From positions 29,139,504 through 29,203,503 of the forward strand of contig OZ037765.1 in NCBI GenBank assembly GCA_964035545.1: a stretch of DNA of 64,000 nt, read 5' to 3'. Position numbers and translations under genes: made by a program. The notes beneath the pieces were generated by a model. It had not been told where the DNA came from. It made no database searches and was given only the letters and a program-made list of their open reading frames with translations. This stretch comes from Bugula neritina. Taxonomy: Eukaryota; Animalia; Bryozoa. The first letter of the stretch is position 1. Every line of letters begins with the position of its first letter. Below are positions 7,701 through 58,485 of this stretch, one piece after another.

Positions 7701-10589
7701 CCCTACTCAGTGCTCTTAGAAACCTAGCTATAGCCCGTATGTCTAACTCTTGATAACTCAGTCAGTGTTTGCCCTGTATAACATGATGAATAGCATCAAA
7801 TACCTTGTTCCTTGTTTTAAAATTTGAGAAATAATATTTATGTTATCATCTGTTTTATTTTTTGTTACTTTAGCAGGCTATCTTCAAATGAGAGCCCAGC
7901 AAGAAAGTTTTGAAGCATGTTTTTGTTGTTTGTATTTGCTGTAATTGAACTGCTGTTAAATTATGATAGTTATATTGAATACTCTCCTTTCCAGCTAGCA
8001 ACAAGCAGCAACTGCTGGAACAAGGTATACTGAAGCATCTGCTGCCCTACATAGACTGTGAGAATAGTATAGTGACCAGCAAACTAGTCGGGGCTATTCG
8101 ACTTCTTATCGACGGCCGTCGTAAGTTGTAAAATGTTAAATATTTAAGCAACTATAAATTAGGAGTTATCTGTCTATTTCTAATTCTTTAACTTCTTTGC
8201 TAATTGCTTTCATTTGAAGTATAACTAGACTGTTTAGATTTTTATTGTCTTGTTTATTGAACATGCTTCGCGTATGTTTACAATAATGTTTATAATCTAG
8301 CTATATATATATTATCACAATAAACAGCAGTTATGTGAAAAAGGCAGGGCAGGCCAAAGTTTTATTAAGTGCATAAATTTTATACTGAAAAAATCTTTTA
8401 ATTCATCAAAATTATGTTTCAGTACAGCAAGAGATGGATGGAAAAAATTGATTTTGAGTCTTATACATTTTTCTTTAGCTTTTTGTAAAATGATTTTAGT
8501 AGTTATAATATGGTTATAATATGCCATTAAACCCCTGCGGTGTCTTGTAGTAGAATTGTGTGCCAAATAGAAAATCTGTTGGTTGCTGAAATGCTGCGAA
8601 TAGTCAGAAAATGAAGAATGTATATATTTAATCAAAAGTCATTGAAATAAAGAGAAAAAATATTTTCGGAACTGTGTATATACAGTTTATATAAGAAAGT
8701 AGCTTAGGCCCTACATATAAATAATATTGTTATGGAGGTATATTCGGTTGTCATTATTGGTTGTAATTAATATAATATGAACAATTACAGCATTATTGGC
8801 GCAATAAAATTAGCAAATGAATTCCAGCCTCCCTCCAACCAACCTTGCTTTGTGCCTTGCATTAGGCCTTAACATCAAAGTATTAGAATTTATATTACTT
8901 TGCAATTTAATATACACAATATGTTGTATGTATTAACATACAGTAATTCATAGGGGGGGTTGTCTGATCATATTGATACTGATTTTAGCTGTGGAGGCAA
9001 GTTATGTTGGTGAGATGGAGATAGTGATAGAGAAATTGGTATTCCATGGTGACAATGAAGCTAACATGCTGTTGAAAGGTAACACCATCCAAATGAAACT
9101 TTTGAGACAAAATGATATTAATAAACTGTGAAGAGAAATTCTAGTAAACGTTATTCTGTCATACTGTACCATGTTTTAAGTATGTTAAAAATTGATTTAT
9201 AGTTTAGCTGACTTCATCACAAGTGATGACCCAAATTCAAAGAAATAGGTAAAAGGTCAGACTATGACACAATAACACTGTGACTGACTGAGAAACTTTA
9301 TACTGTCCAAATAACTGGTATAGTTATTTGACCGTTTGGTGCTAAGTTTTAGACAGAGTTTTTTGAAATGACTTGTATTGAGGGACTCTTGGCGAGTCCC
9401 CCCTCTAGAATTGTAGAGTGGTCACTTCACTGCTTGTAGGAGAAGCTACCAGATGTTTAGCCTGGATAATAAAGAACAGCAGGCAGAAGAAGGTGCTGCA
9501 GAATATCATTAAACACAATGCATTCAGACACCTGGTGTTCCTTGTCAACTCAGAACATGTCATCATGCAAAATGAAGGACTGATTGGCATAGTGCTGTTA
9601 GTCACTACATTACCAGGTGATATGTTGTTCTAGTAGTGATGATAAAACATACTTGAGTTAGTACTTTTAGGAGTTTACTTCTCTTGAACACACGAAGTCT
9701 TGAAGTATGAAAGAAAAACAAATATCAGATGTCTTGCTTAAATCCTGTCTGCTTTAAGATTTTATGTGTTGAGGGAAGGCATCTACTCCAACCACTAATT
9801 TATGTATTATAATTATTATGATTTGTGGTAGCTTATTAATCGCTAATAGCTGTATTTCTCACTCAAGTCTACACTGTAATACTTGAACCAAATTTTAGGA
9901 GCTGATGACTCCACAATTTTACTACCTCTACTCACAGTTTTAGTCAATTGCCGTCTATTGCCTGTAATTTTATTTTATATTACTGTATTACAGCATATAA
10001 TCTGTATTATGATATACCAGTGGCATATTACATATATATTACTGTATTACAACGTATATGTATTGTGACATACTAAAAACTTTCGTATAAATTGATTTGT
10101 AGAAGAAACGAGAAAAGCATCATTAGAGCATAAATTGCCCCAAGTTCTTACAGATTTACTAAATAAAGAAGAACCACCCGCTAAAGAAACTCTTCTCAAC
10201 ACACTAACATTGCTTATGGAACTCATCAACATTGGTATGCATTGCATTCTTACAGCTTACTGTTTTATCTCTCTGATTAGTGTATCCTGCTGTCAGCAGC
10301 ATTACTCAATCCACCGATTCCTTCTCTTCTCTATATCTTCGTTATTACAAAACTGTAACTGTTAGTTGCGTCAACTATAAACGAAACATAAGGCGTTCAG
10401 CCTTGTTGGTGAATAAATATTTTACCTGCAGACTATTCGTATTTACTTGCAGGTATGCTAGATGAACTGGTAGAAAGCAATGCAGAAGCAGCTCTGGTCA
10501 GTTTAGGTAATAAGATAGTAGCGGAGCAAGACCAAGGGGAGAAAATTACTGAACTTATAAATGCTGTTAAAAGCTCATTGCATTTATGA
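1781..10589 (+). CDS. RAP1GDS1: Rap1 GTPase-GDP dissociation stimulator 1 (SmgGDS), ARM-repeat protein, multi-exon
   Basis: Phase-compatible GT-AG exons include 1781-1868, 2158-2307 (AAQLLAELAKA), 2481-2606 (QVIRVLGNLCYE), 3098-3241, ~4537-4680 (LASELIVLVLTG), 5211-5342 (AAFALGNFARD), 7590-7736 (HALLSALRNLAI), ~9440-9616 (GEATRCLAWIIK..LVNSEHVIMQNEGL) and a last exon ending TGA at 10589. These motifs match SmgGDS as recalled. Confidence 0.88.
5404..7586. repeat. 16-bp minisatellite (TGTGYTGTATGTATAY)n, about 136 copies, filling a RAP1GDS1 intron
   Basis: Unit read directly; the 16-aa periodicity in all three + frames equals 3x16 nt; lies between donor 5343 and acceptor 7589. Confidence 0.97.
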
Positions 10590-19900: not shown

Positions 19901-22900
19901 ATCTAGACATACAAACACTTGAGTTTATAAGTGATTGGTAAAATAATATGAGAAACACAGGCTAGTATCAACACATAATTTACTACTTTTTGCTTTGATC
20001 CACTAAATACATGATTGAACAAAAGAAGACAATAACTAAATTACAGAATTCAAATTTCAAGAGTAATGGCCAGTTCAGACTGTTGCTGAAATAAATTTAG
20101 AAAAAAGATATAATTTAAAAAGTACTAGAAAGTTGTTCAATAGCTGCAGTGTGAATAGGGCATAAGGCTCACCTTTACTAGTTAGAAGAGCTGAGGCCAA
20201 GTAGTAGTGCGCCATAGCGAGATAGTGATTGCACTTCATGATAGTTATAGTGAGCCAAGATGCGGGGACGTCATTCCGGACAGACTTACTGGAGACTGCG
20301 TTGTGCGTCTCCTCGTACATGCTGGCAACCATAGCAGCTTCTTGCGAGAATACAACACAATCCGAAAACTTTGTTGACGGTCCCAAGTTTAGAATCATTC
20401 TCTCATAGACGCATTCCTGGGCTTGTGACTGCAGATACACAATCATATGCACAGATAACATCTTACTGATAACAAAGGCAGCCACCATCCACTCATTGAA
20501 TTGACGGAAGTAGGCGCAGCTAAATAGGTGCACGATTGTGAAATCATCTTTTTGTCATGTGCATTAGAACCACAAAGCAAAATATTTTAGTTGTATATAC
20601 ATGATGTAATAGCCTTTTATTACTTATAAAATACATTTTAGGGCTAGTTAAATTACCTATAATATAGAAATTTGTATACTCCTAGGAAGTATTCTTGGGT
20701 CTCGAAAACAAGTTGAATTATTCAACTAGATCACTAGACAACTATTATATTATCTAATGGCTAATCATTTTAGGTTGTCACAAATCCATAGCCACATTTT
20801 TCTGAAGTGAGTCAATTAAAAGGCTAAAAGTGCAATTATTACTAAAAGCAAGATAATAGCTAAAGTTAAACTTTGATGTTTAAATTTCTGTGATTTAGAT
20901 TTAATTTATTTTTAGAAAATAATTACAAAACATGAATTTGCACGAGGTTTTATTCAAATAGCCTAACTCTAATTGACATCAAAGGCAAGTTAGACCTGTG
21001 ACGTGTGTTAACCCTAATGTAACAAATGATCCTAGGCTATAACTGAATACTAGGGCAATGCTTGTATTTTGTAATGCAAATATTAGGATGAAATACAGAT
21101 CAAACACAGAAAACGCATTGTATAAAACTGATAACAGATACAAAAAATATAAATGTATATTTAGCCATTTATAGTAAAAACAGGAAAACATATCTTATGC
21201 ACATGTTGACAAATAGGAAGATTATCTATGTTTGATTGATTGAAAGCATACAATTTTATTGGAGATGTGATTATTTTACATGTATGCATGTCTATTATAT
21301 CGTAGTATATCGATTACTACACTAGATATATTCATTATTAAAAACTGGAATGGAAAGTAAAATGTTAAGTGAGCAGTATGAACATTGAATAATAAAACAC
21401 AAAACTTCAGCACACCTAATACAGTAGAATGTAGAGTACATACCAACATTAGCTGAATGAGCAGTGTCAATGTGTCTGTACTCATGTCTCTGCTAGGGGC
21501 GTGTGTAAACCTGTCCCGCAGATATTTAAGTACACCCGCAGATCTTTGGTAATAATCAATTGCTTTGTCTAGGCCAGACACTGAGCCTCGATCCTAAATA
21601 TAGTTACAAATATTATTACATATATTATATTCAGTGAGACAGGAGTACACAACTCTCAACATCACGAGGTATACATGATAATATATTAGATATGCGATGT
21701 CAAGACAAATTGGCAGAGTTTCAACATGACTAACAAAGCACACAGTGTAGGTGTGCACAGTAAAACTTCGTCTCACACTGCCATCACTGTTATCTCTGAT
21801 AGATACAAAACTGTACACTTGAGGCTGTTAACTGTTTCTATAGGCAGAAGATAAGGGGTAAATGGACCCCTGCTATGGCGTTGGACAGTAGAGATAAGAT
21901 CAGTTGAATATATTACAAGTCTGTATGGCTGTAATAAGTGGCTATAATAACTGCATGTTATGCAGTAAAACTCTTAGCTCAGCAAACTTGAAGTACTTGT
22001 TTAACAGACAAGTTACTCTTAATCTTGTCATAGCAATGGATAGAAAGAAGGGGGGGGGGTGTCACACTATGAAGTAAGCACAGTGGAGGCCAGGCTATGG
22101 AATGTTTCCATAGAAAAAGCTATAACAGCCATATTATATTAATTTATAAGTATAATGACACAATAGGATCCTTTATACGCACCTGAGCAGTACCCAGCTG
22201 TGAATATAAGGCACCAATGTTGAAGAGCACACTACCTTTCTCATAGCCCAGTGTTTTCTGAGTTATATGCACGCCAGTAAGAGAGTCGTACCTGGAGAAC
22301 ACAGGCTATGCATTATTATACAACACAGCAGTTGCCAGATTATATAATAGTTTATATAAGCAGGTAAAAATAATAAATCTTCCAGTCTTTACAATGACCG
22401 AAAATGTATCATTCCAAAGTATGAAAGCAGATAAATTGGCAAAAGTTAAAGTGACACAGTAGTCTATGACTACCAGCAATGCCAATTTTACGAAATAGAA
22501 TTAAACGTTATCGGATCCAATTCTGCCAATTTACAGCATAACTATTAGATGTTAGCAAACATACTACCAAACAGCTATGAGTCACTTCATATTTCTCTTA
22601 AACTGCACAGCATATTATACATTAAACTGTAGAGTATACAGAGACAGGCACACACATGGGTATTATACACTATCTATTACAAGATGTGCTATTGCAAAGG
22701 CTTCCCTATCAATATTATTATTCTACAATCAAATAGGGAAGGGATTTTGCGAGTTCAGGTTTTGTAGTGCATCATTCATAAAATGAAAGAGCGAAATTTC
22801 TATTAACATAAAGGTTGCTATTCTATCAAACATGTAATTCATATTGAATAAGCTGTTATTATAAAGAGCTGGACTAGCCACTAATAACCATGTCTTACTA

Positions 22901-43882: not shown

Positions 43883-46808
43883 TTATTTTTTCGATTTTTT
43901 ATTTCCTTTGCCTTTTTTCTTCTTGTTTTTCTGTTTAGTTTTAAGTTTGATAGAAGTCCTAACTTTATAAGCTCTCCACAAAGCCTGTATGATCACGACA
44001 GCATGCGTTTGACGCTGCCACAATCTGTTCTTCTCTTCAGCTTGCTGTCGCTCCTGCAGTTTCAACTTCATTATTTCTTTGTACTCGCTCTGCAATTTCA
44101 CAGAAGTAATTAGCTTAACACTAACACATTAGACTCTACCATAAATAGCTTAATTTGAAGTAGATATGTATATTTTCACATCTCAATGAGACATAAACTC
44201 AAAAATCAAATACTAGCAGGTATCATAACATACTGTGAACTTAAATGAATTTTGTATATCCTATATCATATTAGCAAATTTGACTATTTTACACAATTTG
44301 CGTACTTATTTCTATGGCACTAAATCACAATAGAACTGTATCTCAGCATGGTTCTTACATATAAGTATTGATTATCATAATTTCAGATTATAATTTGCAT
44401 GGAAAGATAACTTCTGCAACAATTATTTACAAAAATTTTCTTATAAGGCTATATGATTGCTTTTGGTAACAATGAGTGTGAGGCAACCATGTAAATGTGA
44501 CAGAGTAATATTACTAAGCTTGAATATAATTCAGATTTATTATTACATAGAAGACAACTGCTAAACATGTAGTAGGAGAAGCTCTAGAGTTACTAGTAGA
44601 TATACACTCTGTTTTACCTCCAGGGTGTTGAATCTCTGCTCCAGCTCAGTCAGCTGTGCTTTCTCTTCCTGGTATGCAGCATCAATTTCTTCATACTCTT
44701 TCTGCTTCTCAGTCATCTCCACATCAAACTTCTGAATCCAATTTTCTATCTCGCACTCAATTTTATACTTTTTCTGCAAAAGTGCAAGTGTGCCTGTGTG
44801 TGTGTGTTTGTGTGTGTGATATGTGTGCATATATGTGTACACGTGTGAGTGTGTCTGTGTGTGTCTAAACGTGAGTGGCATGTGTTTCGAACAACAAATA
44901 CAAACTCCAACTACAATGAAGCTCCACAATATTCAGCAAGAGCACTTGTTAGAGTTATTACTAAAACATCTATATAAGCTATCTCACCCTACAGTATTCA
45001 CGACCAACTCAAGTTATATTCTACAAAATCCTGTCTACCATTCTCAAAAGGCGCTCTTCTTCTCTGTGCTCAATCACATCATTATCCAGAATATAAGAAA
45101 GACTTTTCAGCTCGGTTTGCATTCTGTCCTTTCTAACTTGACTTGCTTTGTTATCAGCATGCTTTTGCTTGTCGGCTTCATTATTCACTCTTTTTATATC
45201 TTCATCAGTTGTCTTTTCCAACATTTGAAGATTCATCTGCAAATTATCACCAATGACTATGAAATAGTTCATTATGATAGGAATTGAATGCAAATTGTAA
45301 GTTTAAAACGATTTCATGGTAAAATACTCCATTAAAATTATTCATTGTTTTAATACAGATGACTCACTCATGTTACAACTTATTAAACAGTTTCAGCTTT
45401 TGCAACATTTCATTAGCCACCAAAAGACTGACATTGACAAAGATTATACTAATTTCTAGGTTTAATGACACTATCGCAACCAACATGAAAGTTTTTTCTT
45501 CAAAATGATGTTGTGCACTTGTTTAAATTTTCAAGATGTAATTGCTTCCCCTGTCAAGCACGCAGCCTCTTACACCATCATTTTCATTTGAAATTGCACC
45601 TTATTGCAAATTTTACACCTGCTTCACACGTAGGAGAAAAAGAACAAGAGCAGACAATTACCAATTTCAGAATGTTGAACAGGTAAACCTTATCAAAAGA
45701 AAACTTACTTGTAGATGATGAATGGTATCATTTCTTGCTTTAACTTCTTTATCTCGTTCTGCTATGCCTTTTTGCAACTGTGCTTCCAATTGGTCGATTT
45801 CACTTTGGTTTATCTTCTGTTGAGCAGCAATCTAAACAGGTTTAGTAGTTTGAGACCAACAGCTGATTATGAAGAAAATTCAGCACCCCCCCCCCCCCAC
45901 TATAATGCAGTTTGACTTTAAAAAGTGTCCTTTGTATTAGGTTAAACAAGTTCCGTCTCATCAGTGCAGTAGAAATAATGCATACAGTTACTCACCTGAG
46001 ACAGGTAAACCAGCTTATCATTTTGTTCAGTTGGGGGAACCAGTAATCGCTGCAAGATCAATTCTTTTAAATCAGTCAAGCAATGCATGAAAAAAGCTCC
46101 TTCCCGGGTCCTGCCTTGGCTGCACTCGGCTATCAATCTCACCATTGTCTCCTCCCGGCTTCTAAACTCTCTTAGAATGTTTCGCACACTGAACTCCAAG
46201 TCTATTTTAAGTTTATTAAGCTCAAGCACAGTCTGAGTGACACGAAGTTTAGAATAATCACTGTGAAAGTTTGAATCAACTACACTAGACCTTACACTGC
46301 CATAACCCGGCAATACCATTGTATCCAACTGATCCTTTACTCGATCTAGGATAAAGGGGTTCAGCAGACTTTCATCAACTCTGGATGACCGCCGAGTGTT
46401 GACAGATGAAGACACTGCTGAAGCTGCTTCACTTTGTATAGGTGACAAATCAAGATAAACCTGTTCTACAGAATGAAAGTGGCTCAAACGCTCAGCATGT
46501 GTTCGGAGAAGTTCTGCAAGATCCGGACCAAGTAGTGTCTCAAACTTCGTGAGGTCTTTCATAACATACCGCAAAATTATAATTAAACTGCACTTGAGTT
46601 TAGCTTCATCTAATACGCCTATGATTCTTTGTGCTTCTAGTGAGTGCAACTTTTTTTGACATGGCTCTAGAACCTTTAGTGGATTTAACTTTAGCTTGGG
46701 ATTAAACTTTTTGGCAGACTTGGCAGTTAACTTACTGAAAAAATCATTTTGATTATCCATAACCAAAAAGCTTTTATTTCTCTCAAGAGTGGGTAACTTC
46801 AAACTCAT
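43883..46808 (-). CDS. IQCD: Dynein regulatory complex protein 10 / IQ domain-containing D
   Basis: [41 protein letters not shown]-terminal IQ motif [12 protein letters not shown] and a Lys-rich tail; 5 exons. Confidence 0.85.
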
Positions 46809-47728
46809 TTTGACTTCGTAAACAAATCGTCGGTTAAGTTTGGTTCTCCTTCCTTTAATTAAGCAAACAGCAATGTGCTATTTAACAAACTTCCTTTTAA
46901 TATTAATCATTTGCACACTATCAAAATTATTGAATAGGCAAATTTGTTTTTTTTAATTTCCAATATTTTGACATGATGAAATACTTAATGAATTACATAA
47001 TGTAAACACAAAGTGTACTGTACTAGCATTCAAATAGTTATTGATAACAATCAGAATTGTAATACTATTCAACAACAAACGATAATATCTTTGAAATGAT
47101 ATGATATTCTAGTATTAAGTAAATTGAAACAACTGGCAACAACAATGCTTTAGAATAATATTATTGTTATTTCAAATTTATAACACAATATAAAATGTAA
47201 ATTTGTCTACATGTATATAGAAATTATTAAATAGATATAAATATGTATATACTTAAAAGAAATATCTTTATAATCTAACAGGACGAAATTACTTTTAGGC
47301 ACTTTTAGGTGCATAGAATAAACATCCACATATATCATAAATACTATAAAATGTAGCTCAATTTTAAATCCCTGAATGAAGCTTAGGCTACACAGGGTCT
47401 ATATTAACTATAAATATAAAATGAATATCAAAAACAATACATTTGTACTGATATAAAAATAAAAGTCATAGGGTAACCACAGAAAACACTGCTATCCCTA
47501 AGTAAACAATTATTGCCATATTCTGATCTAGCTGAATTCTCAATTTAACTGGTTCTAAAAGAACTATAATAAATACTGATTTTAATTCTGTATCAACAGA
47601 TTTGAGTCTTTTAGGTCACAATAATAGTGAAGGCTGAGCCACTTCCCTATCAGAATATTAGGTTCACAGACTACAGGTAGACTATGTATGATGAGTTAGC
47701 ATTGGAAGAGTTACCTGCGAACAGGTAG

Positions 47729-50700
47729 TTAGTTGTTTGAGAGTAGCAATTCGACAGCTTCAGCTAAGTTGTCAACATATCCATCAGGTGTTATTTCAGA
47801 ATGAGGCTCATCGCAGACGGCCCTGATGGAAAGAGCAACATTGCATAGTAGGAGTATGTAACTGCTTACAAGTTTCTATTGTTTTCATGCAATATTCTAT
47901 ATAAACTTTATTTTATAAGTTGGCTTGATTAGGAAGCTGCTAGCTAATTCAAATTGCGTGATTGGCTTGACAGTTTGTCTAGACAATGTAATGACTTATT
48001 TTATCTATTGATTTAAATTCTGCCTAGCTCTGGCCACACAATTTATTGAAAAAATTAAAAATATAATATATTTTTAATTTAATTTAATAGGTATATATTA
48101 TATGCCTATTGTACTGTCTGCACACAATATGATCACCTAACATTAATTCAACATTTGAAGAAATAAAACAAAAATCTGGTCATAGTATACCGTAACTATA
48201 AATGGCAAAATACAACTACACCCATAAACAGATATGAATAATTTATTACTTTTTAACTTTCAAGTGCATTCATTAAATAAAGCCTAATGCTTGTTTATAA
48301 ATGCAGGTATGTTTAAATTTACCTGTATTTGCCAGTCCTAACTTGTACCCCCTTCATACCGAGAGCCTGGGCACCCCCTACATCGCTGATAATATCATCT
48401 CCTATCATGACACACTACAGGAAAAACACACCAGAACCAGTAAAAATCAGCAACTTATATAATCAGATAAAAATTAAATTTTAAAAAATTTCTGATCCTT
48501 GAGCTTTGAAATTGTATAACAAATTAATATTAAAGGGGGAGGGAGAGAGATGGAGAGGGAAAGAGGGGGGGGAGCAGGAACGTAAAGGAGCAAGGAAAGA
48601 AAGATGGGAACTATAACACGGAGAATAAGTTTAGCATAACACCTACATCCTGTATGTTGACTCCAAGAAGCCGAACTGCTTGATCATAAAATAGTTTGTT
48701 TGGCTTCCCACAGACAATCATCTTGCAGTCACACGCGAACTAAAACATAATTTACAAATAGAAAAAGAAGCATAAAGATGTTCTAAAATTAAAAATATAT
48801 AATAATAATAATAATAATAAAACAGATGGGGGTTCAGAGTTAAAATCTTACCTCCAAAGCTTTAGCATAAGCACCAACATCTAATACTAGATCATTGCCT
48901 TCCTTGTAGTATTTCCTAAAAATAGCAATACTACCATATCATCATAAGTTATACACCAAACAAAGTTGTAGCTACTTTTCAAATCCTCAAAATCAGTAAA
49001 ACCTGATGAAACTACATTACTCCTGCTTGGCCAACCAAACCAGCAATGATTGCAATCTAATATTAACAGCTATGGCAAACAATAATAAGTATTTAGAGAG
49101 GTGACTGTTGAAGACAAATTCAACCTTAATTCTGCTGGAATATCTTTTATTCTGTTTCTGACCAACAATAAACAATCAAATCCAATTGTATTAATGATGA
49201 ATGAGCTTTTATCACTAATTTCTGTTTTCTCTATAATTAAGCAAAAAATAATCTTATAATTGCAACTTTTAGGTGAGCAATGTATTTTCATATTATTTGG
49301 CTTCTAAACTTAACAATGTTCAGTTTGCTATATTTCCGATATATTTAATGACATACGTAATGAAAATAACTACAAAAACCAATGGCTTGCACATTTTATT
49401 GTACCTATGTAAAAGTGTATTCAAATGAATAATTTTTCTAAAAGAAAGAAACTATTTTCATCGTATTATAGAAAACTCAATAAAAATATTTCTTAGAATA
49501 AATTTGCTGAGTAGATTGTTACATTGCTCCATAATATAGTTTGTAGCCTGTGAACTATTTCTTTACAACTCACCCTCCCCCCATAGAGTACAACTTCCTG
49601 TCCTTGGGACTCATACTAAGTAAAGTATTGAACGCAGCATTCATTGCAGAATACGTGAAATGGGTATTGCAATCCCCCATAACCACACAGTTTGGATTCT
49701 CAGTAGATATGGAAGCAAATTCAGGAAGTACATCTGTAAATGACACAGAAAGAGAAAATAAAAAGCAAGAAACAATTTTTGTATCTTTCTTACCAAACTG
49801 TTTAGTATCATATAAAAAAATATCCAAGAAAACACGCAACACAATAAGTAGTTTACCTGGTGCTTCAAGAAGTCTATTAAAGAGGTCTTGTTGAATTATT
49901 ACTAACAGGCTTGTAATGTATAAAAAGGTTAATAGGAAATCAATAACCTAATATAAATACATGAAGCACATTGACATGATCCAAGGGGTCACAATGTATT
50001 TGGTATACTTACACAAAACTCACTAACTCTGTGAGAACCCCTAATAGAAAAGGTTTTAAGCAGCTAAGGACTTGTTTTTATGTTGTGGCAAAGGAGTAAC
50101 TATGATTGAATGTCCTTCCTAACATCACCAATAGCTCTATTGGGAATCAAACCACTGACCCTGTGCTTACTAAGTCGGTGCTTTAACCCCAAACCACGGC
50201 TGCTCCATCACTCATACCATAAAATATCTCAACAGTAGGTGGGTTTCCAGTTTGAATGATTCTAGTAAGAAATGGGTGCTGGTTAAAGGTTTAAACTGAC
50301 ATTGAAGCTGCCTGCCATCATGTAAATTTTCACCTGGTAATAAATCAGGAAACTTTCACCTCACCTGGATGAACCAGTAGGTGTGGACGCAGATTCTCCT
50401 GCTTTAGTAGCTCAACCATTGCAGGAGCTGGGCAAACTATATCATCAGATGTTATATTAAATCCGTGCTTGGTAAGTTTTGCAGCGAAATTATCTCTTGT
50501 TTCTGTAGACTCATTCGAGCAGAGTTTAAAAGGAATATGGCTGGCTTTCAATCTAGAATTTTTGTTAATTTAAACAAAATACACTACACATTGAAATAGC
50601 AACTTAGATAAGACGGAAAAGTTAGCTATACTATACAGTAACTTTGCAAAATATGTAACGCTCAAATTATTAGCCCAAAGTAAATAGAATTTAAAGATTA

Positions 50701-50910
50701 CCATTAAAATAGTTATTTATGTCAGTAGACCTAATTATCAACTTTTAATTTTTAAAAGTTTTAATTAATTAATAATATTGCTGCAAATATTTTTTACCTT
50801 TGTATAGCATCAATAGAACCTTCAATCGCTGCACCACCAGTTGGGCCACTGTTGTACAAAACTCCAGTAACATCTAGCAGTACCCCTTTCACACCTTCAT
50901 ACCATGACAT
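47729..50910 (-). CDS. LHPP: Phospholysine phosphohistidine inorganic pyrophosphate phosphatase (HAD IIA), 7 coding exons
   Basis: MSWYEGVKGVLLDVTGVLYNSGPTGGAAIEGS, CSNES, LRPHLLVH, NPNCVVMGD, VCGKP, MIGDDIISDVGGAQALGMKGVQVRTGKY, PDGYVDNLAEAV. Confidence 0.9.
50030..50208 (-). mobile_element. tRNA-derived SINE-like copy in an LHPP intron
   Basis: The minus strand has an A-box-like GTGGTTTGGGGTTAAAGC and a B-box-like GGTTTGATTCCC, then TATTGGTGATGTTAGGAAGGACAT, which is shared with the copy at 50984. Confidence 0.55.
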
Positions 50911-51200: not shown

Positions 51201-51296
51201 TCTAAACTAACATGAAACAGAATAAACCCAATTGAATCAAGTAACTTCCAATTGACTTGTGAGTTTTAAAAGCAAATATGTTGAGTATAGATATGG

Positions 51297-51649
51297 TGTA
51301 GTGAGTCATGCAAAGTACAAATACGGGAATCGCCCTCTCTCCGTTCTGGGAATACTAAGGCCCTTATGTAGCAACCAATTAGCAGCACCGGAAGATATGC
51401 TTCCGACTTACGTGACACTTCCCGGGCTATTGACAATTGATCACGTTGTTGTAAGCGGAGGCTTGAAGTAGAAACATGTGTTAGTAGTTGACTGATGTAT
51501 AGGATAATTTGATGTAATGTTTGCTTTGTGTTTTATTGTGGATAATAAATATAATTACTCGACAGCTACCCTAGTAATTGCTAGTAGAATAGCCAACTAA
51601 GTATAGGCAAGTAGATAACTCACGCACAGTAATTGCACAAATTACTACA
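51297..51649 (+). repeat. 5' LTR (353 bp)
   Basis: TGTAGT..ACTACA terminal inverted repeat; AATAAA at 51544-51549; matches 56309-56661 except at 2 positions. Confidence 0.97.
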
Positions 51650-51650
51650 G

Positions 51651-51668
51651 TGGTAGCAGCGGTGGGAT
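51651..51668 (+). promoter_or_regulatory. Primer binding site, probably tRNA-Leu
   Basis: TGGTAGCAGCGGTGGGAT begins 1 nt after the LTR; 17/18 match to the complement of the metazoan tRNA-Leu(AAG/TAG) 3' end as recalled (TGGTGGCAGCGGTGGGAT). Confidence 0.75.
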
Positions 51669-51684
51669 CTTGCGTATAGCAGTC

Positions 51685-52632
51685 ATGGCAGAAGACGGCA
51701 CGGAGCTACCCATTCCACTGAACGAAGGTGAGAGAGATAATGTTGATATACCTGTGGAACCAGTAGTGTTGGAAGAAGTGAGAATTCCTAGAGAGCCTGG
51801 TGAAGACAGATACCGGCTGAAGGCGCCCACCTTCACAGGCGAAGAGGCAGTAGAGCAGTTTATCCAAGAATTCCAAGATGTGATGGAAGTTGCACAGTGG
51901 CCACCAAGGGTGGCGTTGCTCAAGCTCAGGATGGCGCTGACGGACAAGGCTAAGCCGTACGGAGCGGGACCTGACATAGACGGAATCTTTGCTTCTCTGC
52001 GGGCCCGTTTTGGCATCTCCCCCATAGATGCACGGGCCCGTCTACAAAGGCTGCGGCGTGATCCTCACACGTCGCTACAGGAGCACGCTGCCACGGTGCA
52101 CCCACTAGCGCAGATCGCGTTCCGCGATCTGCCTCCAGTACACCGTGAGAGATATACTTATGATGCCTTCGTGCAGTCCATCAACGACTTGGGGCTCCAC
52201 CATCAATTCCAAGCGAGGGGAGTCACCACGGTCGAAGATGCACTTGCGGTGGGAGAAGCCTACCTCATGGCGACTCATATGCACCGCAATCGCGTGGCCT
52301 CCCGCCAGGTGGCCACGGAGCACACTACTGCTCATACTGAACCAAATGCGGAACCCTCCGCGGTGGCTAATGTGAACCACATGTCACTAGCATCAAAAGT
52401 CGCACAGATGACTGACATGCTAGATAAACTGATCGCCGCATTAGCTCCCCCAAGCCAGGTAGATACCGCCCGTGAGCCTTGCGGGCCGCAGGTACAATCA
52501 CCAGGCATGGGGCATAACTTCTGCTGGGGATGCGGAAGGCCAGGACATTTCCAAAAGAACTGCCCTCAACTCCAACAAGGGTTAAACTACCACGGCCCGC
52601 AGATGTTCCCACCTCCTGCGGGCCGTCTGTAA
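51685..52632 (+). CDS. gag: Retrotransposon Gag (315 aa) with CCHC zinc knuckle
   Basis: First ATG after the PBS; capsid-like start KAPTFTGEEAVEQFIQEF..W; knuckle CWGCGRPGHFQKNC. Confidence 0.9.
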   Translation: MAEDGTELPIPLNEGERDNVDIPVEPVVLEEVRIPREPGEDRYRLKAPTFTGEEAVEQFIQEFQDVMEVAQWPPRVALLKLRMALTDKAKPYGAGPDIDGIFASLRARFGISPIDARARLQRLRRDPHTSLQEHAATVHPLAQIAFRDLPPVHRERYTYDAFVQSINDLGLHHQFQARGVTTVEDALAVGEAYLMATHMHRNRVASRQVATEHTTAHTEPNAEPSAVANVNHMSLASKVAQMTDMLDKLIAALAPPSQVDTAREPCGPQVQSPGMGHNFCWGCGRPGHFQKNCPQLQQGLNYHGPQMFPPPAGRL

Positions 52633-52646
52633 ATCACCCAGGGAGG
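52581..52646 (+). promoter_or_regulatory. -1 programmed ribosomal frameshift signal (G_TTA_AAC plus stem-loop/pseudoknot)
   Basis: Heptamer in gag phase at 52581-52587; perfect 11-bp stem 52592-52602/52616-52626; the pol frame is -1 relative to gag. Confidence 0.75.
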
Positions 52647-52721
52647 ACCGCGCGTCTGCCGCCCCGCTGGGCGCCGCGCGGAGATGCTGTGAAGTGGCGA
52701 CCCCCGCGGCAAGTAGGATGA

Positions 52722-54729
52722 AGCCACTCGCCGCCTGGGTCCTCTACGCCACTCCAACACCAACACGGATCCGGCAGACGGTTGATCTCAGAGCCTGCGA
52801 GGGAAACGGTACAGGCGCCGCAAGGCGTACCGCCCCAACCTCGGCAGCTGGTCAATAGTCGTCGCCAACCGTGGACCCCTCGACCCACAGCGAGGGAGGT
52901 GCAACCACGGCACACACAGCTGCAGCCACACGGAAGTAGCTATTTCCTGCCAGGAAAGCTAGCCGGCAAGCCTGCCAACTTCCTCCTGGACTCAGGCTGC
53001 ACCACCAACCTCCTTAGCCGTCAATTCTTTGACACCCTCAGCGCTAAGGTCAAGGACGGGTTGGCACCGTATGAGGGGGATCATGGCACCCTGGCAGACG
53101 GGTCGTGCATTCCCTTCTACGGCATTATTGAGCTGACTGGTTACATCCGTAACCAGGCCATCCAAGAGACGTTTATCGTCGGGCAGCTCAACGAGGACGC
53201 TATCCTCGGGATGTCATTCTTACGACACGGATATCGCATCGATTTCAGTAAATCTGCGATGATCATGGGCGACAGGGAGCTCGCTTGTGTCGATAAGTTT
53301 GGTCGTCCTCTAGCGGGAGCAGTGCAGGTAGTACGGAGCTGTACGATACCGGGCCACTCCCGGGCTACCGTCCGCTGCAAAGTAGACGGTGGCCAAACCT
53401 CTAAGTTGGGAGTTGTCGAAAGTACGCACTCAAGAATCCAACTTGCCCATAGCTTTAGCCGGCTTACGGGACAAGGAGAGATTTCAGTGCAGTGCGTCAA
53501 CCCCTCCTCAGAGACAGTAGACCTACCACCCAGGTCCATGCTGGGCCGCTTCCATCCTGTCCAGGAGGAAGCCATTGGGCCGTCGTCGGGAGCTACGACG
53601 GAAGGTCCTCAGCAGAGCCCGTTTCAAGGGCGGAGGACCGTCCCAACCCACGCCTCCCATCTTCCAGGGACGCGTGGCTACACAGGCAACGGAAAGCGCC
53701 AGGCTATGGCTAGGTTGCCACATGGGTGCAGTGAGGCGCTCCGCCACACAGACCACGACGCCCGCCTAAATAGAGCAGGCCGTCGTGAGGTACCACGGGC
53801 GGCGAAGACCGCCCCTGCTCAGCAACTCCAACAGAGGGCTGACACGCCCCCGGAGGCTGTCCAGAGCCTCTGCGCCAAACCTGTATGGGCTGGTAACGTT
53901 AGGGAGCTGCCGAAGCTCCAGGAAAGCCTTCTTGGGGTGGTAGCCGACGTGTACCGAGCGAAACAGGAAGGGCGACGACCCAGTAGTAGACAACGGCGAC
54001 AGGGATGCGCCGAGTTACGGCTGTACTGTCAACGTTGGAACTCTCTGCGGGTCGGGCCAGATGGTCTGCTGACCATGACCTTGGCCGCCAACAGCAGACA
54101 ACCAGCCAGGAAAAGGATCGTCTGCCCAGCTGCCATCCGCCGGGAGTTGATACAAGACACCCACGAAAAGACTCACGGAGGAGTCCAAGAGGTAGTCACC
54201 AAGCTACAACTCCGGTGGTACTGGCCCAACATGGAGCGGGATATCCGGCGCAGAGTGAGACGGTGCGAAGTCTGCCAGACCAACAAGCATAGCCGTCTCC
54301 CTGGTGAAGCGGGGCGGCAGACGCATTGTGCGAGGAAGTCTTGGCAAACGGAGACTGTCGTCCTGGCCGGAAATACCTCCATGACACCTCAGGAAGACTT
54401 GGCGAGGCGAGAAAGGCCACTTCCGTCCTTGAAAGTGCGCCCACCGCCCCCAACGTCAAGCCTGCCATCACCACCACTTCCGGAACCAGAAACGGGTCCG
54501 GAAGTGCAAAAAACCCCCCGTGGGAGGGGCTCCGCAAGGAGATACCAACGTAGGAACAACCGTCACAAACAGGCTGGAAAAACCACCCGTGAGACATAAC
54601 AATCCACGGGTGAGCACACCGCCTCCCACAGTGACGACGCCTCCAGGACCACACACTAGGCAACCCCCAGCGTGTCTCAGAGACTGTGTACGTGACTGCG
54701 GTACAAGCGGCAGTAGGCGGAAAGTCTAG
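52722..54729 (+). pseudogene. pol: Internally deleted pol: aspartic protease, spacer domain, integrase HHCC finger and C-terminal tail
   Basis: FLLDSGCTTNL and AILGMSFL (protease); THEKTHGG..WYWPNMERDIRRRVRRCEVC (integrase Zn finger); no YxDD; tail motif RQPPACLRDC in a shifted frame; in-frame TGA at 52719-52721. Confidence 0.85.
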
Positions 54730-54949
54730 CGAGGTCTCGCATGGGAAAACAGGCAAAGAGACGTGGGAGTTGTGAACACCACGGAAATCTCAACTTTTGC
54801 CTCGGCGGAATCTCACACGAGATTCATCCGCTGGAAGTGAAAAGCCCTAGTCACGTTTCACAACCACGCTGCCCGGTCTTTTCCTACGTTGATGCAGTCA
54901 AGAGTAGACGTGCCACTAAACAGTAATCATTTACCGCTCTCATTCCAAA

Positions 54950-56007
54950 ATGTCTTACTATTCTGGATCGAAGGGTGAGTTAATTATGTTTTTGGTACGA
55001 TAACTAGACTGCATCAGTCAGCTTTAGCTACACTAGCTAGCGAGCTGGAGATTCGATAATGATAAACAGTGGTGGGAATACACGTCGACTTTGATTTTAA
55101 ATAATCTGCCATAGCGAGTGTGTTCTCCATCAACTATTCATTAGCCTGAATCTCACGAGTGTAACTGAACAGAGTACCTGTCAGGCTGTACACGCCGGCG
55201 GTACCTCAGTGTATAATCTTTAACACTGCTACTCTTTCAGATCACACTCGAGTGACCACCTCCCGGTCACGGGACCAGCCAACCCCTCTACCTATGGAAG
55301 AAGAACCTGTGATGGAGAATGGCTTACCCGTGGTGCTTCGTCGACGACACCGCTGGGTGTCACCCACGACGGAAAGGAGAATTGAGGAAGCCTGGGGACC
55401 TAGCGGACCCCACCGGACCTGCCAGGTCTGCTTCGAGGAGTGCCCGTCACACCGCTCCCTGCGTCTGCATGTAGACGCCCATTTTCTACTCCATTTCTGC
55501 CCATGCGGGTTCCACGATGTATACCCGTATCCTGTGATAGTCCACAAGTTGAGCTGCTTCGCCGGAGAGGGCCATATTGTTGATGAGGACAGTTTCCCCC
55601 AGTACCTAGACACCATCAAGCCAGTCATCAAGAAGGCTATCACCCTGGCCGCACTAGCGTCAGGGTTCCAAGTACTGCTGTTATCCGCCCGCCATAAGTC
55701 CCCTATGGTTCAGGGCCCGTCTCCTACCCCCGTCAACTCTAGCAACACCCCCGAATTAGAAGGAACAACAATACCCCCAATAACAGAGACTACTACAACC
55801 CCACCAAGGCCTAGCCGGCTGGCTAATGTAGAAGAGCGGCTTGTAAAACTACAAGCCGAGTTTACGCAACTGGCCCCTGACCTGCTGGATACGACAACAG
55901 GTCTATACCAGCTGAAGGACTCAGTGGGGCGACTGAAGAGGCGGCTACGTGCCCGACAGGCTCGACACAGAGCACGCTCGCTACAAGAGTCAGAGTCCAC
56001 CCAATGA
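54950..56007 (+). CDS. Spliced accessory gene of the LTR element (exons 54950-54974 and 55241-56007; 263 aa): C2H2 and C2HC zinc fingers, leucine heptad, Arg-rich tail
   Basis: CAAAATG start; donor G|GTGAGT at 54975; branch-like CTTTAAC at 55218-55224; acceptor CTCTTTCAG ending 55240; the phase-1 join is in frame with ORF 55252-56007. Confidence 0.75.
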
Positions 56008-56294
56008 GTATGCCTGGGGTAGGCACCTTTCGTTGAGCTGTATTTCGTCTGGAAAGTGACGAGTGCTCCGACATTGGCCCGCGTGCTGGTAAGCACCCTC
56101 TCTCTTTATAGCTGACTAGATGTGTGTGTTCGATCACCCTGTTTACTTCTGTATATAAATGTTGTCGTACTCAACTATTTCTCTTCTCCCTTTTTGTGGG
56201 TTTACTTATGTATGTTTTTCTTTTTGGATTATTGTATTGTTTTTCTTTATATGTGTTTTTTGTATTGTGTTATCAGAAAGTAGGGCTTTCTGCT

Positions 56295-56308
56295 GGGGGG
56301 GGGGGCGG
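56295..56308 (+). promoter_or_regulatory. Polypurine tract
   Basis: GGGGGGGGGGGCGG directly before the 3' LTR. Confidence 0.85.
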
Positions 56309-56661
56309 TGTAGTGAGTCATGCAAAGTACAAATACGGGAATCGCCCTCTCTCCGTTCTGGGAATACTAAGGCCCTTATGTAGCAACCAATTAGCAGCAC
56401 CGGAAGATATGCTTCCGACTCACGTGACACTTCCCGGGCTATTGACAATTGATCACGTTGTTGTAAGCGGAGGCTTGAAGTAGAAACATGTGTTAGTAGT
56501 TGACTGATGTATAGGATAATTTGATGTAATGTTTGCTTTGTGTTTTATTGTGGATAATAAATATAATTACTCGACAGCTACCCTAGTAATTGCTAGTAGA
56601 ATAGCCAACTAAGTATACGCAAGTAGATAACTCACGCACAGTAATTGCACAAATTACTACA
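56309..56661 (+). repeat. 3' LTR (353 bp)
   Basis: Direct repeat of 51297-51649. Confidence 0.97.
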
Positions 56662-58080
56662 ATATTTATACTAACTTTATTATTATTAAAATGTTAATAG
56701 TTATTATTTTTATTGTTGATTACAATATCTGTGATGATAATGGCCTCTATGACTAAAAAATATGTATGACAAATTTATTAAAAAATGAAAAGTCACAACT
56801 ATTTATTTTGATGAATATTTGAGCATAATTAAACAAGTGAATGAGTGCATGTATGGTCACTCATTTTAACTTTATGACAATAACAGTATATCCACAATAA
56901 TCATAATGACAACATTCAAACTTTGGATGCAGCTGAGGTTTGTTACTAGTAATATTAGTATTAGTACAGCAGAGCAAAATTACTGCACCTGTAGTAATTT
57001 AGTAACTAAAATACTAATTCACAATCACTATCAGTATCACTATTCACGAGTAGTATTACTATGAGTAGTGCTGATCAAGCATTGGTGATACTGATTTGTC
57101 TTACTCTTAACCCTTAGGCAACAACACTGTTACTGCAACTGACTGTTAGTGCTACACTTAGTGCCAGTGTCACACTGACAGTAACACTAACTGTGCATAT
57201 CAATTACACAGTAAATGACAACTATATTTCAACATCACAAACTCAAAAGAAAACGTGTTATACTCATACTGATTGTTTAAAGTTAAACTATAATTTAACT
57301 TAAATTTAAGAGTCAAGATGAAGAGGAAGTGAGATTTAAACTTAGTGAATCATAGAAATTGAAAAATATTTGTTGTTAGATACTTATACTTATATTGAAT
57401 TTGATATTGTATTTCAATCTGTATCTGACTGAAAAGCCAAAAGGTAAACCTAAGATGAAGATGTAGTTTGTTTCAAACCCTAGGGCCTAGGTATATCAAT
57501 GGGAATATGATTATCGCATTCATAATGATTATCAGTATCCTTATGATTGTGAATATCGATTTGAATTTGATTTATCAACCCATAATTAATATTATGATTA
57601 ACCATGTTAAACGCGAAACACTCAGTCACTCCCAACGGCAACTCGGGGTTTCCTAAACTTGTAGTTAGTAGTTACAGCAAATTTCAGACCATCATGATCA
57701 CCGATCATGATAAACGAATAACCTCATAAAGGTCACCACTCAGAGTCACTCTAAGTTCTAACTCTCAGTCTCAATCTTTGCTAAGCCAAACTGAAACTCA
57801 AAGGATAATCAATATCATAATCATAATGATAATCATAATGATAATGATAATGCCAATGGCAATGCAGAAGTTTAATAGCTTCAGTACAATAGGTTACGTG
57901 AATTTTGTACACTTAGGAGAAATAAATAATGTTATGTCTATGCAAATGAAAAAATCAGATAGCAATAGTCATACTCATTGCGATAGTACAATCCTATGGT
58001 GATGCTATCGCTTTAACTACCTCTGCAAAATTCTTGCACAACGATAGGTGTAGGAATAGTGCGCCTCTCCGAATGGTTAG

Positions 58081-58485
58081 TTCTATATGCAGTAATCTGG
58101 CTCGACATCTAGTTCGCTGGATATTGCCTGATTGGCTGCTTTGCGCACGTGCTATTGTTGATGTCTGAGATTGTCATTGCGCACTCCAACTCTAAGTACA
58201 CAATATAATATATCGCTGCATACCCCAAAAGTGGCCATCATTGCAACCATACTTAGTTCTACTTTAGATTTCAAAATTGTCTATTGCTTTAGAAGCATCA
58301 TCAATTGAGTCATAGTAAAACGCTGTAAAGGTTGTAATGACTTTATCATTTTAATTATTGAGTTGGAGAGCACTTGTACGCTATGACAGTCGAGGGCATT
58401 AAAATAATCTCGTGCGTTTTCAATTAGTAAGCCAATCAGAAAATATACAGCAACTGAATATCGCGCCAGATTACTGCATATAGAA
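58081..58485. mobile_element. MITE-like element with ~56-bp imperfect terminal inverted repeats
   Basis: 58081-58137 (TTCTATATGCAGTAATCTGGC..CTGATTGGCT) aligns with the reverse complement of 58430-58485; the outer 21 bp are identical. Confidence 0.7.

Follow-up and report, generated by a model that had tools for sequence, protein, structure and literature searches.

How can a retrotransposon that encodes neither a reverse transcriptase (RT) nor an integrase core have inserted recently into an animal genome? The question is raised by a Ty3/Gypsy element of 5,365 bp at positions 51297–56661 of the window, the stretch of 64,000 nucleotides of Bugula neritina DNA analyzed here; all features described lie on its forward strand. 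Members of the Ty3/Gypsy superfamily are recognized by TG..CA termini and a target-site duplication of 4–6 bp. The two LTRs of the element (51297–51649, with AATAAA at 51544, and 56309–56661) are 353 bp each, run from TG to CA, and are mismatched only at 51409/56421 (T/C) and 51606/56618 (G/C). The primer binding site (51651–51668) starts with TGG one base after the 5′ LTR and may be tRNA-Leu-like; no tRNA gene was found in the 64-kb window. The polypurine tract (56295–56308) reads 11 G, C, and GG. Primer binding site, polypurine tract, and termini are all intact.

The 5′ flank ends with ATAT followed by GG (51291–51296), and the 3′ flank begins with ATAT (56662–56665). Both target-site copies were recognized by flank comparison and by the empty site in run X1, which comes from another individual and joins 51292 to 56662 at flank depth (123). 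The GG between ATAT and the 5′ LTR also stands directly before the 3′ LTR, an agreement with a chance of about 0.025, and is likely the retained end of the linear cDNA. A GG before both LTRs could also be left by 3′-to-5′ conversion, and at least 32 internal sites of the window copy differ from the majority of the X1 depth, as would suit an old insertion whose LTRs were made alike by gene conversion or by assembly collapse. This is nevertheless highly improbable, given that the empty site in X1 is as deep as its flanks, that the LTRs still carry two differences, and that non-autonomous copies take internal differences from their source copy. CpG decay was rejected as the origin of the window-specific changes, only 3 of 21 such transitions being in a CpG context. 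Because the LTRs are nearly identical and X1 carries the empty allele, the insertion is recent, as the original prediction held; the LTR divergence (2/353) is below the 1.6–2.5% that separates the window flanks from those of X1. The element is situated upstream of an LHPP-like gene's first coding exon, at a distance of about 390 nt, and hence not inside a coding intron of that gene.

The gag frame (51685–52632) is open and encodes 315 amino acids that are capsid-like with one CCHC knuckle. Its product gives Atlas values of 0.95–0.97 to Retrotrans_gag/Ty3_capsid/PNMA clusters, and this feature-based, not structural, match points to a Ty3-type capsid Gag. A −1 frameshift signal is predicted at 52581–52626, with the heptamer G-TTA-AAC in the gag frame and an 11-bp hairpin at 52592–52626 (z −1.77; 11 of 200 shuffles were equally stable). 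This region forms the highest-depth bin in X1. The changes in gag amount to only 3 silent and 3 replacement.

The pol remnant (52722–54599) contains a protease with its DSG motif (about 52950–53228), a beta-rich post-protease domain, a decayed RT N-terminus, an integrase N-terminal extension with the HHCC finger (about 54126–54293), and a proline-rich tail. Pfam matched the frame to protease (E 2.5e-5) and Integrase_H2C2 (E 1.4e-15) and to nothing else; RT, RNase H, and rve had no match there. Alignment against full-length relatives placed one deletion near 53823, where the pre-RT segment passes to post-RNase H sequence, and another near 54390, where the start of the integrase core passes to the C-terminal tail. 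Both keep the frame, so the two in-frame deletions that had been predicted are confirmed, as is the loss of the first catalytic Asp, AVDLVGP of the relatives being TVVLAGN in the window copy. The protease was likewise said to be kept, which holds for the domain and its DSG and fails for the window copy as a supplier of the enzyme. A stop codon (52719–52721) lies between the frameshift signal and the protease, and therefore the window copy is predicted to be unable to make protease by simple frameshifting. Besides this stop, the window copy has a one-codon gap in the protease region and a frameshift near 54508 that ends the homology to the tail of the relatives; all three, together with the ATAT-GG flank, had been overlooked. 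The 35 differences listed between the pol of the window and that of X1 comprise 12 silent and 23 replacement changes, against a neutral expectation of 0.32 for the silent share (p 0.43), and thus the recent pol changes of this copy look neutral.

Were these deletions made after insertion, in the window copy alone, near-identical full-length copies should exist. Such a private origin is practically untenable: nothing was found in its favor, and shared junctions refute it. The relative P0001 (92% identical) has both junctions in the state of the window copy. Copies with the same junctions, whose counting had been proposed as a check, also appear as bridging contigs in X1, X2, X4, and X5. For instance, in X1 a contig with a depth of 4,535 spans the integrase junction (rows 54342–54388), and a contig of X5, a separate study, spans the RT junction free of gaps (53710–53859). 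Only 2–3% of the X1 records compared continue into unlike sequence, and the long Pol sequences found reach at most 51% identity. The family depth in X1 is about 50–100 times the flank depth in this one run, whose library type is unrecorded, and depth of this kind does not give the number of copies.

The deletions have been inherited along one lineage. Seventeen RT-deleted proteins, 54–92% identical, fall into one clade of 20 rows (support 100/96) nested within 32 RT-bearing rows, in a 56-row tree that was built without the junction columns. The clade is recovered from the protease only (12 labelled rows, SH-aLRT 94) and from the N-terminal integrase region (12 of 13 rows, 91). Its members can be arranged in ladders of growing deletions, which for the RT junction run from P0014 through P0009/P0029, the P0002 type, and the P0042 type to the window copy and P0001, and for the integrase junction from P0053 to P0002 and the window copy. 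A protein search detects long open frames only and so is biased to in-frame junctions. By these alignments the deleted lineage is of single origin and old, in agreement with the long-lived non-autonomous lineage first proposed.

Divergence within this clade is uneven. The internal branch sums are 0.35 for the protease, 0.72 for the beta domain, and 2.41 for the RT N-terminus, and thus the orphaned RT remnant has evolved about 7 times faster than the protease; the same regions give 2.02, 1.84, and 2.29 in 12 RT-bearing rows. Similarly, eight deleted rows give 0.50 for the N-terminal extension and 0.45 for HHCC, against 1.28. All 15 deleted rows retain 23–26 of the 27–28 protease columns that are conserved in distant autonomous elements, and the four zinc ligands are all present in 9 of 11. 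By comparison, 16 deep rows keep 3–8 of 11–18 conserved columns in the RT N-terminus. Constraint, as inferred from protein comparison and not from dN/dS, has therefore been kept on protease and HHCC at the level of the lineage.

Alternatively, the element may be a passive hitch-hiker that is mobilized in trans, its pol remnant never having been functional and its slow regions representing RNA signals or recombination with helper RNA. The window copy fits this well, with its stop before the protease and its neutral recent changes. The 40 X1 differences listed all have a share of at least 0.67. As the stop is not among them, many X1 copies may carry it too, and 59% of the X1 depth has the window state near 54508. 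Nevertheless, we consider this somewhat unlikely for the lineage as a whole. The deleted rows stay together in the protease tree, and therefore helpers have not donated their protease. In 15 of the 17 relatives that align near the stop, the frame reads open across it. Relative to P0020, the changes in the window copy spare protein-conserved columns (1/27 changed against 20/71 elsewhere, p 0.011; for HHCC, 3/19 against 18/42, p 0.047); the column tests for the post-protease and N-terminal-extension regions were not significant. Cis-acting RNA signals could slow some regions too.

The enzymes would have to come from elsewhere. Autonomous relatives (P0020, P0047, and P0182) have a Ty3-like RT and the pol order PR-RT-RH-IN, and their best PDB match is Ty3 Gag-Pol (E 8e-123). 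The remnant has PR followed by the IN N-terminus, and judged by sequence the element is Ty3/Gypsy by descent. Of the long intact Pol sequences found, the nearest reaches 51% identity; closer RT-bearing matches (53–66%) are fragments. The 6 loose ends listed, of 168 in X1, include none at either junction. Such fragmentary close relatives, with no helper among the sequences found, would suit a dead family whose copies arose through segmental duplication or through a helper since vanished. This reading is quite improbable, as the target-site copy, the unique flanks, and the empty allele mark a real recent integration, and a working RT and integrase were needed at that time. Two traits expected of a satellite-helper system are present: a recent insertion although no catalytic domain of RT or integrase is left, and a deleted structure passed on by descent. 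The third, an intact partner in the same genome with matching LTR ends and primer binding site, is a prediction.

ORF3 (55294–56007) encodes 237 amino acids with a C2H2 finger, a CxC-x12-H-x3-C finger, helices, a variable Pro/Thr linker, and a coiled coil with a basic tail. It is preceded by a 266-nt GT..AG intron (54975–55240) with a GTGAGT donor, a pyrimidine tract, and a TTTCAG acceptor. The intron is missing from some contigs, with an exact excision in one of X1 that has a depth of 843, which suggests that spliced RNA was reverse transcribed. The autonomous relative P0187 carries the ORF3 module fused at the end of Pol, and hence ORF3 is ancestral, inherited from autonomous relatives and not special to the deleted form. 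The same fusion, and the absence of a transmembrane segment by eye, rule out captured host cargo or env. The window protein has no Pfam match and no PDB sequence match below E 0.3. Its predicted models are weak (pLDDT 61 and 66) and retrieved nothing from PDB or BFVD with Foldseek, and its Atlas leads reach only 0.88–0.90; from its motifs it may be a regulator. Pattern matches were never confirmed in metagenome contigs (0 of 166 for ORF3, 0 of 72 for the H2C2 region) or in viral contigs scanned for the element (0 of 82). Four of 61 pol matches, all of the deleted type, pair with 4 of 120 ORF3 matches on contigs of equal size, 0.8 being expected by chance, and this pairing is suggestive only.

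The explanation we prefer, at a probability of about 80%, is that the window copy inserted recently, is still polymorphic, and belongs to an old Ty3/Gypsy lineage of single origin without RT-RNase H or integrase core, which likely multiplies by having its RNA packaged and copied while intact relatives provide RT and integrase in trans. The observations beneath it are the LTR age, the empty site, the shared junctions, the single clade, the high family depth, and the uneven divergence. Over most of its history the lineage would have made Gag, a frameshifted mini-Pol of protease and integrase N-terminal/HHCC domains, and a spliced zinc-finger ORF3. These products would aid its own packaging or expression, which would explain why purifying selection maintained them and let the orphaned RT N-terminus decay. 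The stop ahead of the protease, the tail frameshift, and the neutral recent changes suggest that the youngest subfamily, including the window copy, may now be losing mini-Pol to become a gag-plus-ORF3 element. A bolder and rather doubtful extension is a semi-autonomous invertebrate satellite that long built and matured its own capsid with a purpose-kept mini-Pol. The integrase N-terminal/HHCC part of this mini-Pol would serve as an adaptor, recruiting the helper RT-integrase or assembling together with it, its spliced tandem-zinc-finger/coiled-coil protein a regulator from an unnamed Gypsy accessory family, and all steps of reduction, from full Pol to gag-plus-ORF3, would exist among living copies.

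By analogy, the element may work like several known systems. The wheat Fatima subfamilies famc1.4 and 1.5 have proliferated with gag and protease ORFs and without RT or integrase, for which a division of labor with an RT/INT-bearing subfamily was proposed (bioRxiv 10.1101/363192). They resemble the Bugula element in being gag-protease LTR subfamilies that lack both enzymes, and differ in being of plant origin; they are not reported to carry an integrase N-terminal remnant or an accessory zinc-finger ORF, or to form a graded deletion series. Mouse IAP 1Δ1 likewise is a non-autonomous animal element with an in-frame internal deletion, of 1.9 kb, and out-transposes full-length IAP with a remnant fusion protein that helps in cis (PMC6466679). 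IAP 1Δ1 is betaretrovirus-like and very young, and its deletion fuses gag and pol, whereas the Bugula element has a whole gag, a kept frameshift signal, two deletions, and 54–92% identity within its lineage. Zebrafish Bhikhari-1/-2 form another recently active animal LTR family that has Gag yet no RT or integrase, its partner unfound (PMC12067270); it is Lokiretrovirus-related with a single gag ORF, and neither a protease nor an integrase remnant nor a third ORF accompanies it. TR-GAG elements, described as shorter than 4 kb, with one ORF, filtered for no similarity to protease, integrase, RT, or RNase H, and mobilized in trans (PMC4350172), share LTRs, primer binding site, polypurine tract, gag, lack of RT, and multiple copies, which for the Bugula family are indicated by an X1 depth far above the flanks, not by a count. 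The TR-GAG label first applied to the element does not fit, since it has 5.4 kb (5,365 bp), three ORFs (gag, pol remnant, and ORF3), and protease and HHCC matches (E 2.5e-5 and 1.4e-15). Autonomous Ty3/Gypsy elements (yeast Ty3; P0182–P0195) share gag and, in the relatives, the PR-RT-RH-IN order from which RT, RNase H, and the integrase core are gone here. The openly accessible literature that was searched yielded no paper on such an architecture in an invertebrate or on the ORF3 family, which is not proof of absence.

Non-autonomous LTR elements that keep gag or gag-protease are thus familiar from plants and vertebrates, with their origin and required parts mostly guessed. The family described here provides a dated, nested deletion series on one tree, in which the decay of the RT N-terminus serves as an internal control for protease and HHCC, and it allows testing on which parts of a retroelement selection acts in cis once the enzymes are provided in trans. 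A family of Gypsy accessory zinc-finger/coiled-coil proteins, of the ORF3 type, is indicated as well; it has no Pfam family and counts 110 representatives at 50% clustering.

The Ty3/Gypsy element spans 51297–56661 and is bounded by LTRs of 353 bp that start with TG and end with CA. A primer binding site begins at 51651 and a tract of 11 G lies before the 3′ LTR. Gag (51685–52632), a pol remnant (52722–54599) and ORF3 (55294–56007) follow one another in between. Pfam recognizes a CCHC knuckle in gag and a protease and Integrase_H2C2 in the pol remnant, and finds no match in ORF3. Gag also resembles retrotransposon capsid clusters in a feature-based match (0.95–0.97). The gag stop codon (52630–52632) has a different letter in 70% of the depth of the public sequencing run X1, with the stop preserved.

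The insertion is young, as originally predicted. The LTRs indeed differ at only the two sites originally noted (0.57%; 95% interval 0.07–2.0%). When public contigs were aligned to the region including both flanks, X1 matched the flanks of the window at ~98% with a depth of ~100, and the LTRs are thus closer to each other than the two host alleles are. X1 also contains the empty site: one contig (depth 123) runs straight from 51292 to 56662. The surroundings are rich in introns and have 32% GC. An LHPP-like HAD phosphatase gene occupies ~49570–50910 on the minus strand; the insertion sits ~390 nt upstream of its first coding exon and could alter the expression of the gene.

ATAT is found at both ends (51291–51296, a following GG included, and 56662–56665), at the centre of an AT-rich palindromic target site (AGTATA..TATACT). 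The GG between ATAT and the 5′ LTR is identical to the two letters before the 3′ LTR (chance ~0.025). We infer that the GG is a linear cDNA end retained as if incompletely processed; conversion from the 3′ end would be the rival source of the same two letters.

Compared with the full-length Pol P0182, ~455 residues comprising RT and RNase H are missing, together with roughly 290 more comprising the integrase core and most of the C-terminal domain. Searches gave 61 relatives of the pol remnant of similar length and 16 long ones. The RT junction is common to P0001 (92%), P0002 (64%) and 14 more, in graded states: in P0014 the RT start runs directly into post-RNase H sequence, the loss is slightly larger in P0009 and P0029, and the extra residues at the junction number 29 in the P0002 group, ~20 in P0042 and 0 in the window and P0001. 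At the integrase junction, P0053 retains a longer state, and P0001, P0002, P0006, P0007, P0041, P0046 and others share the state of the window. In DNA, one X1 contig (depth 4,535) crosses the integrase junction and a contig of X5, a separate study, crosses the RT junction. The sample S2 (runs X2 and X4) contains a ~5% diverged relative at flank depth whose RT junction has some 60 bases more. Both deletions originally noted are therefore common to relatives and not private to this copy; they are real, family-wide and old.

Other deletions were also observed. X1 contigs of depth ~4,000, and likewise P0001, skip 87 nt at 54555–54643, an additional in-frame tail deletion of a sister subfamily. P0054, joining early RT to late integrase, appears to be a separate deletion, and in P0151 the pol tail is fused to ORF3. 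P0055 has a bigger loss, from the protease end to post-RNase H sequence; it is placed outside the deleted clade and is a separate event by the trees.

The main tree was built from the post-protease region with junction columns excluded, for the 56 of 78 proteins that were sufficiently covered. It unites all 17 RT-deleted rows, along with 3 unclassed ones, in a single clade (100/96) nested inside the 32 RT-bearing rows; the earliest branches of the clade are P0014, P0009 and P0029. Quick trees agree, both for the protease (33 rows; SH-aLRT 94) and for the integrase N-terminus (20 rows, most distant ones left out; SH-aLRT 91). The single clade and the graded junctions uphold the proposed long-lived deleted lineage. 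The depth of the family in X1 is mostly 5,000–10,000 or more per site versus ~100 in the flanks, which implies tens of copies or more, depth itself not being copy number. X2 and X4 bear the same organism label as X1, yet their flanks are ~5% diverged with gaps; they have the subfamily of the window at flank depth only and related families very deep. S2 may be a cryptic sister lineage that did not undergo the burst.

Constraint within the lineage appears uneven. In protein-level proxies from a search biased toward open frames, the internal branches of a fixed tree sum for protease to 0.35 in the 13 deleted rows versus 2.02 in 12 RT-bearing rows, for the beta-rich domain to 0.72 versus 1.84, and for the RT N-terminus to 2.41 versus 2.29. 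Eight deleted rows give 0.50 for the integrase N-terminal extension, 0.45 for HHCC, 0.43 for the beta domain and 1.28 for the RT N-terminus. Among columns conserved in distant autonomous elements, deleted rows keep 23–26 of 27–28 in protease; for the RT N-terminus, 16 deep rows keep 3–8 of 11–18 and three basal rows 12–14 of 18. The column test reaches significance in neither the beta domain nor the N-terminal extension, and for HHCC in just 1 of 4 pairs. All four HHCC zinc ligands are present in 9 of 11 deleted rows. Protease and HHCC are thus kept at the lineage level, and at the protein level the protease and integrase N-terminus appear constrained while the RT N-terminus has decayed.

The element combines intact cis signals, lack of catalytic RT and integrase, recent integration, descent from one long-lived deleted clade and uneven constraint. 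RNA transcribed from the 5′ LTR would be packaged partly in its own Gag, together with helper Gag-Pol, and copied and inserted by the helper RT and integrase. The protease and integrase N-terminus may have been retained because they helped particles to mature or assemble in cis. The partner would be a helper element within the same genome; the RT-bearing close relatives (53–66%) are fragments only, from unknown hosts, and identity to the best long Pol is 51%.

The window copy has decayed further. Near the end of gag lie a G-TTA-AAC heptamer, which we take to be a putative slip site, and an 11-bp hairpin (z −1.77). A stop at 52719–52721 separates this site from the protease; the position is open in 15 of 17 relatives aligned near it. 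The pol tail changes frame near 54508, a point at which the X1 depth splits 41% to 59%. Among the 40 of 83 window–X1 differences listed, 12 of 35 in pol are silent (neutral expectation 0.32). Every difference listed has an X1 share of at least 0.67, and the stop is not among them, a hint that many X1 copies carry it too. Given the upstream stop, tail frameshift and neutral changes, the youngest subfamily may already function as a gag-plus-ORF3 element.

ORF3 has 146 close relatives, and the family counts 110 representatives at 50% clustering. Across 126 relatives, 87–99% of covering rows preserve the eight putative zinc ligands, and block scores are 0.42 for the linker and 0.88–0.90 for the coiled coil. 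The two-finger pattern recurs in 26 of 31 distant relatives checked, several with weak C2H2 matches. The whole module lies at the Pol end of the autonomous P0187 (E 3.6e-20; hhalign 95.5%), the only scorer among the pol proteins searched, so ORF3 is inherited from autonomous relatives. By eye, P0193 also seems to contain the zinc-finger module, and P0226 and P0282 have it in duplicate. Predicted folds of ORF3 and structure searches (PDB, BFVD) gave no informative match; the product is a predicted nucleic-acid-binding regulator.

A 266-nt intron with consensus ends (54975–55240) stops 53 nt short of the ORF3 ATG; one X1 contig (depth 843) lacks precisely this segment. Many other deletions within this stretch spare the acceptor. 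Host introns are evenly covered in X1, which therefore looks like DNA, so the intron-less contigs would be retrotransposed spliced copies.

The TR-GAG-like label originally suggested does not hold. As defined in PMC4350172, TR-GAGs are <4 kb, carry gag alone and show no similarity to protease or integrase, whereas this element spans 51297–56661 with three frames and protease and Integrase_H2C2 matches. Closer in working are subfamilies of Fatima in wheat whose only ORFs are gag and protease (10.1101/363192), IAP 1Δ1 with a cis-acting fusion protein (PMC6466679), Bhikhari (PMC12067270) and bovine ERVK, in which defective elements out-compete the competent (PMC10924933). Sunflower elements encoding a single protein (PMC9784723) and non-coding Culex elements (PMC3286476) have also been described. 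No report of such architecture in invertebrates was found in the literature, Repbase, closed papers and supplements lying outside the search. The preserved deletion series, constrained mini-Pol (protease plus integrase N-terminal/HHCC part) and unnamed ORF3 family set the element above a routine defective copy.

Elsewhere in the window, a minisatellite at 5404–7586 (16-bp unit, 136 copies) has several open frames and strong GC skew. Minus-strand exons at 20075–20554 resemble a BRO1-domain gene; those at 44561–46877 we take to resemble a DRC10/IQCD-like gene, and the plus strand at ~62040 presumably resembles an SLC5-type transporter start. Inverted repeats of 57 bp at 58081–58137 and 58430–58485, 86% alike and ~400 bp end to end, are possibly a MITE.
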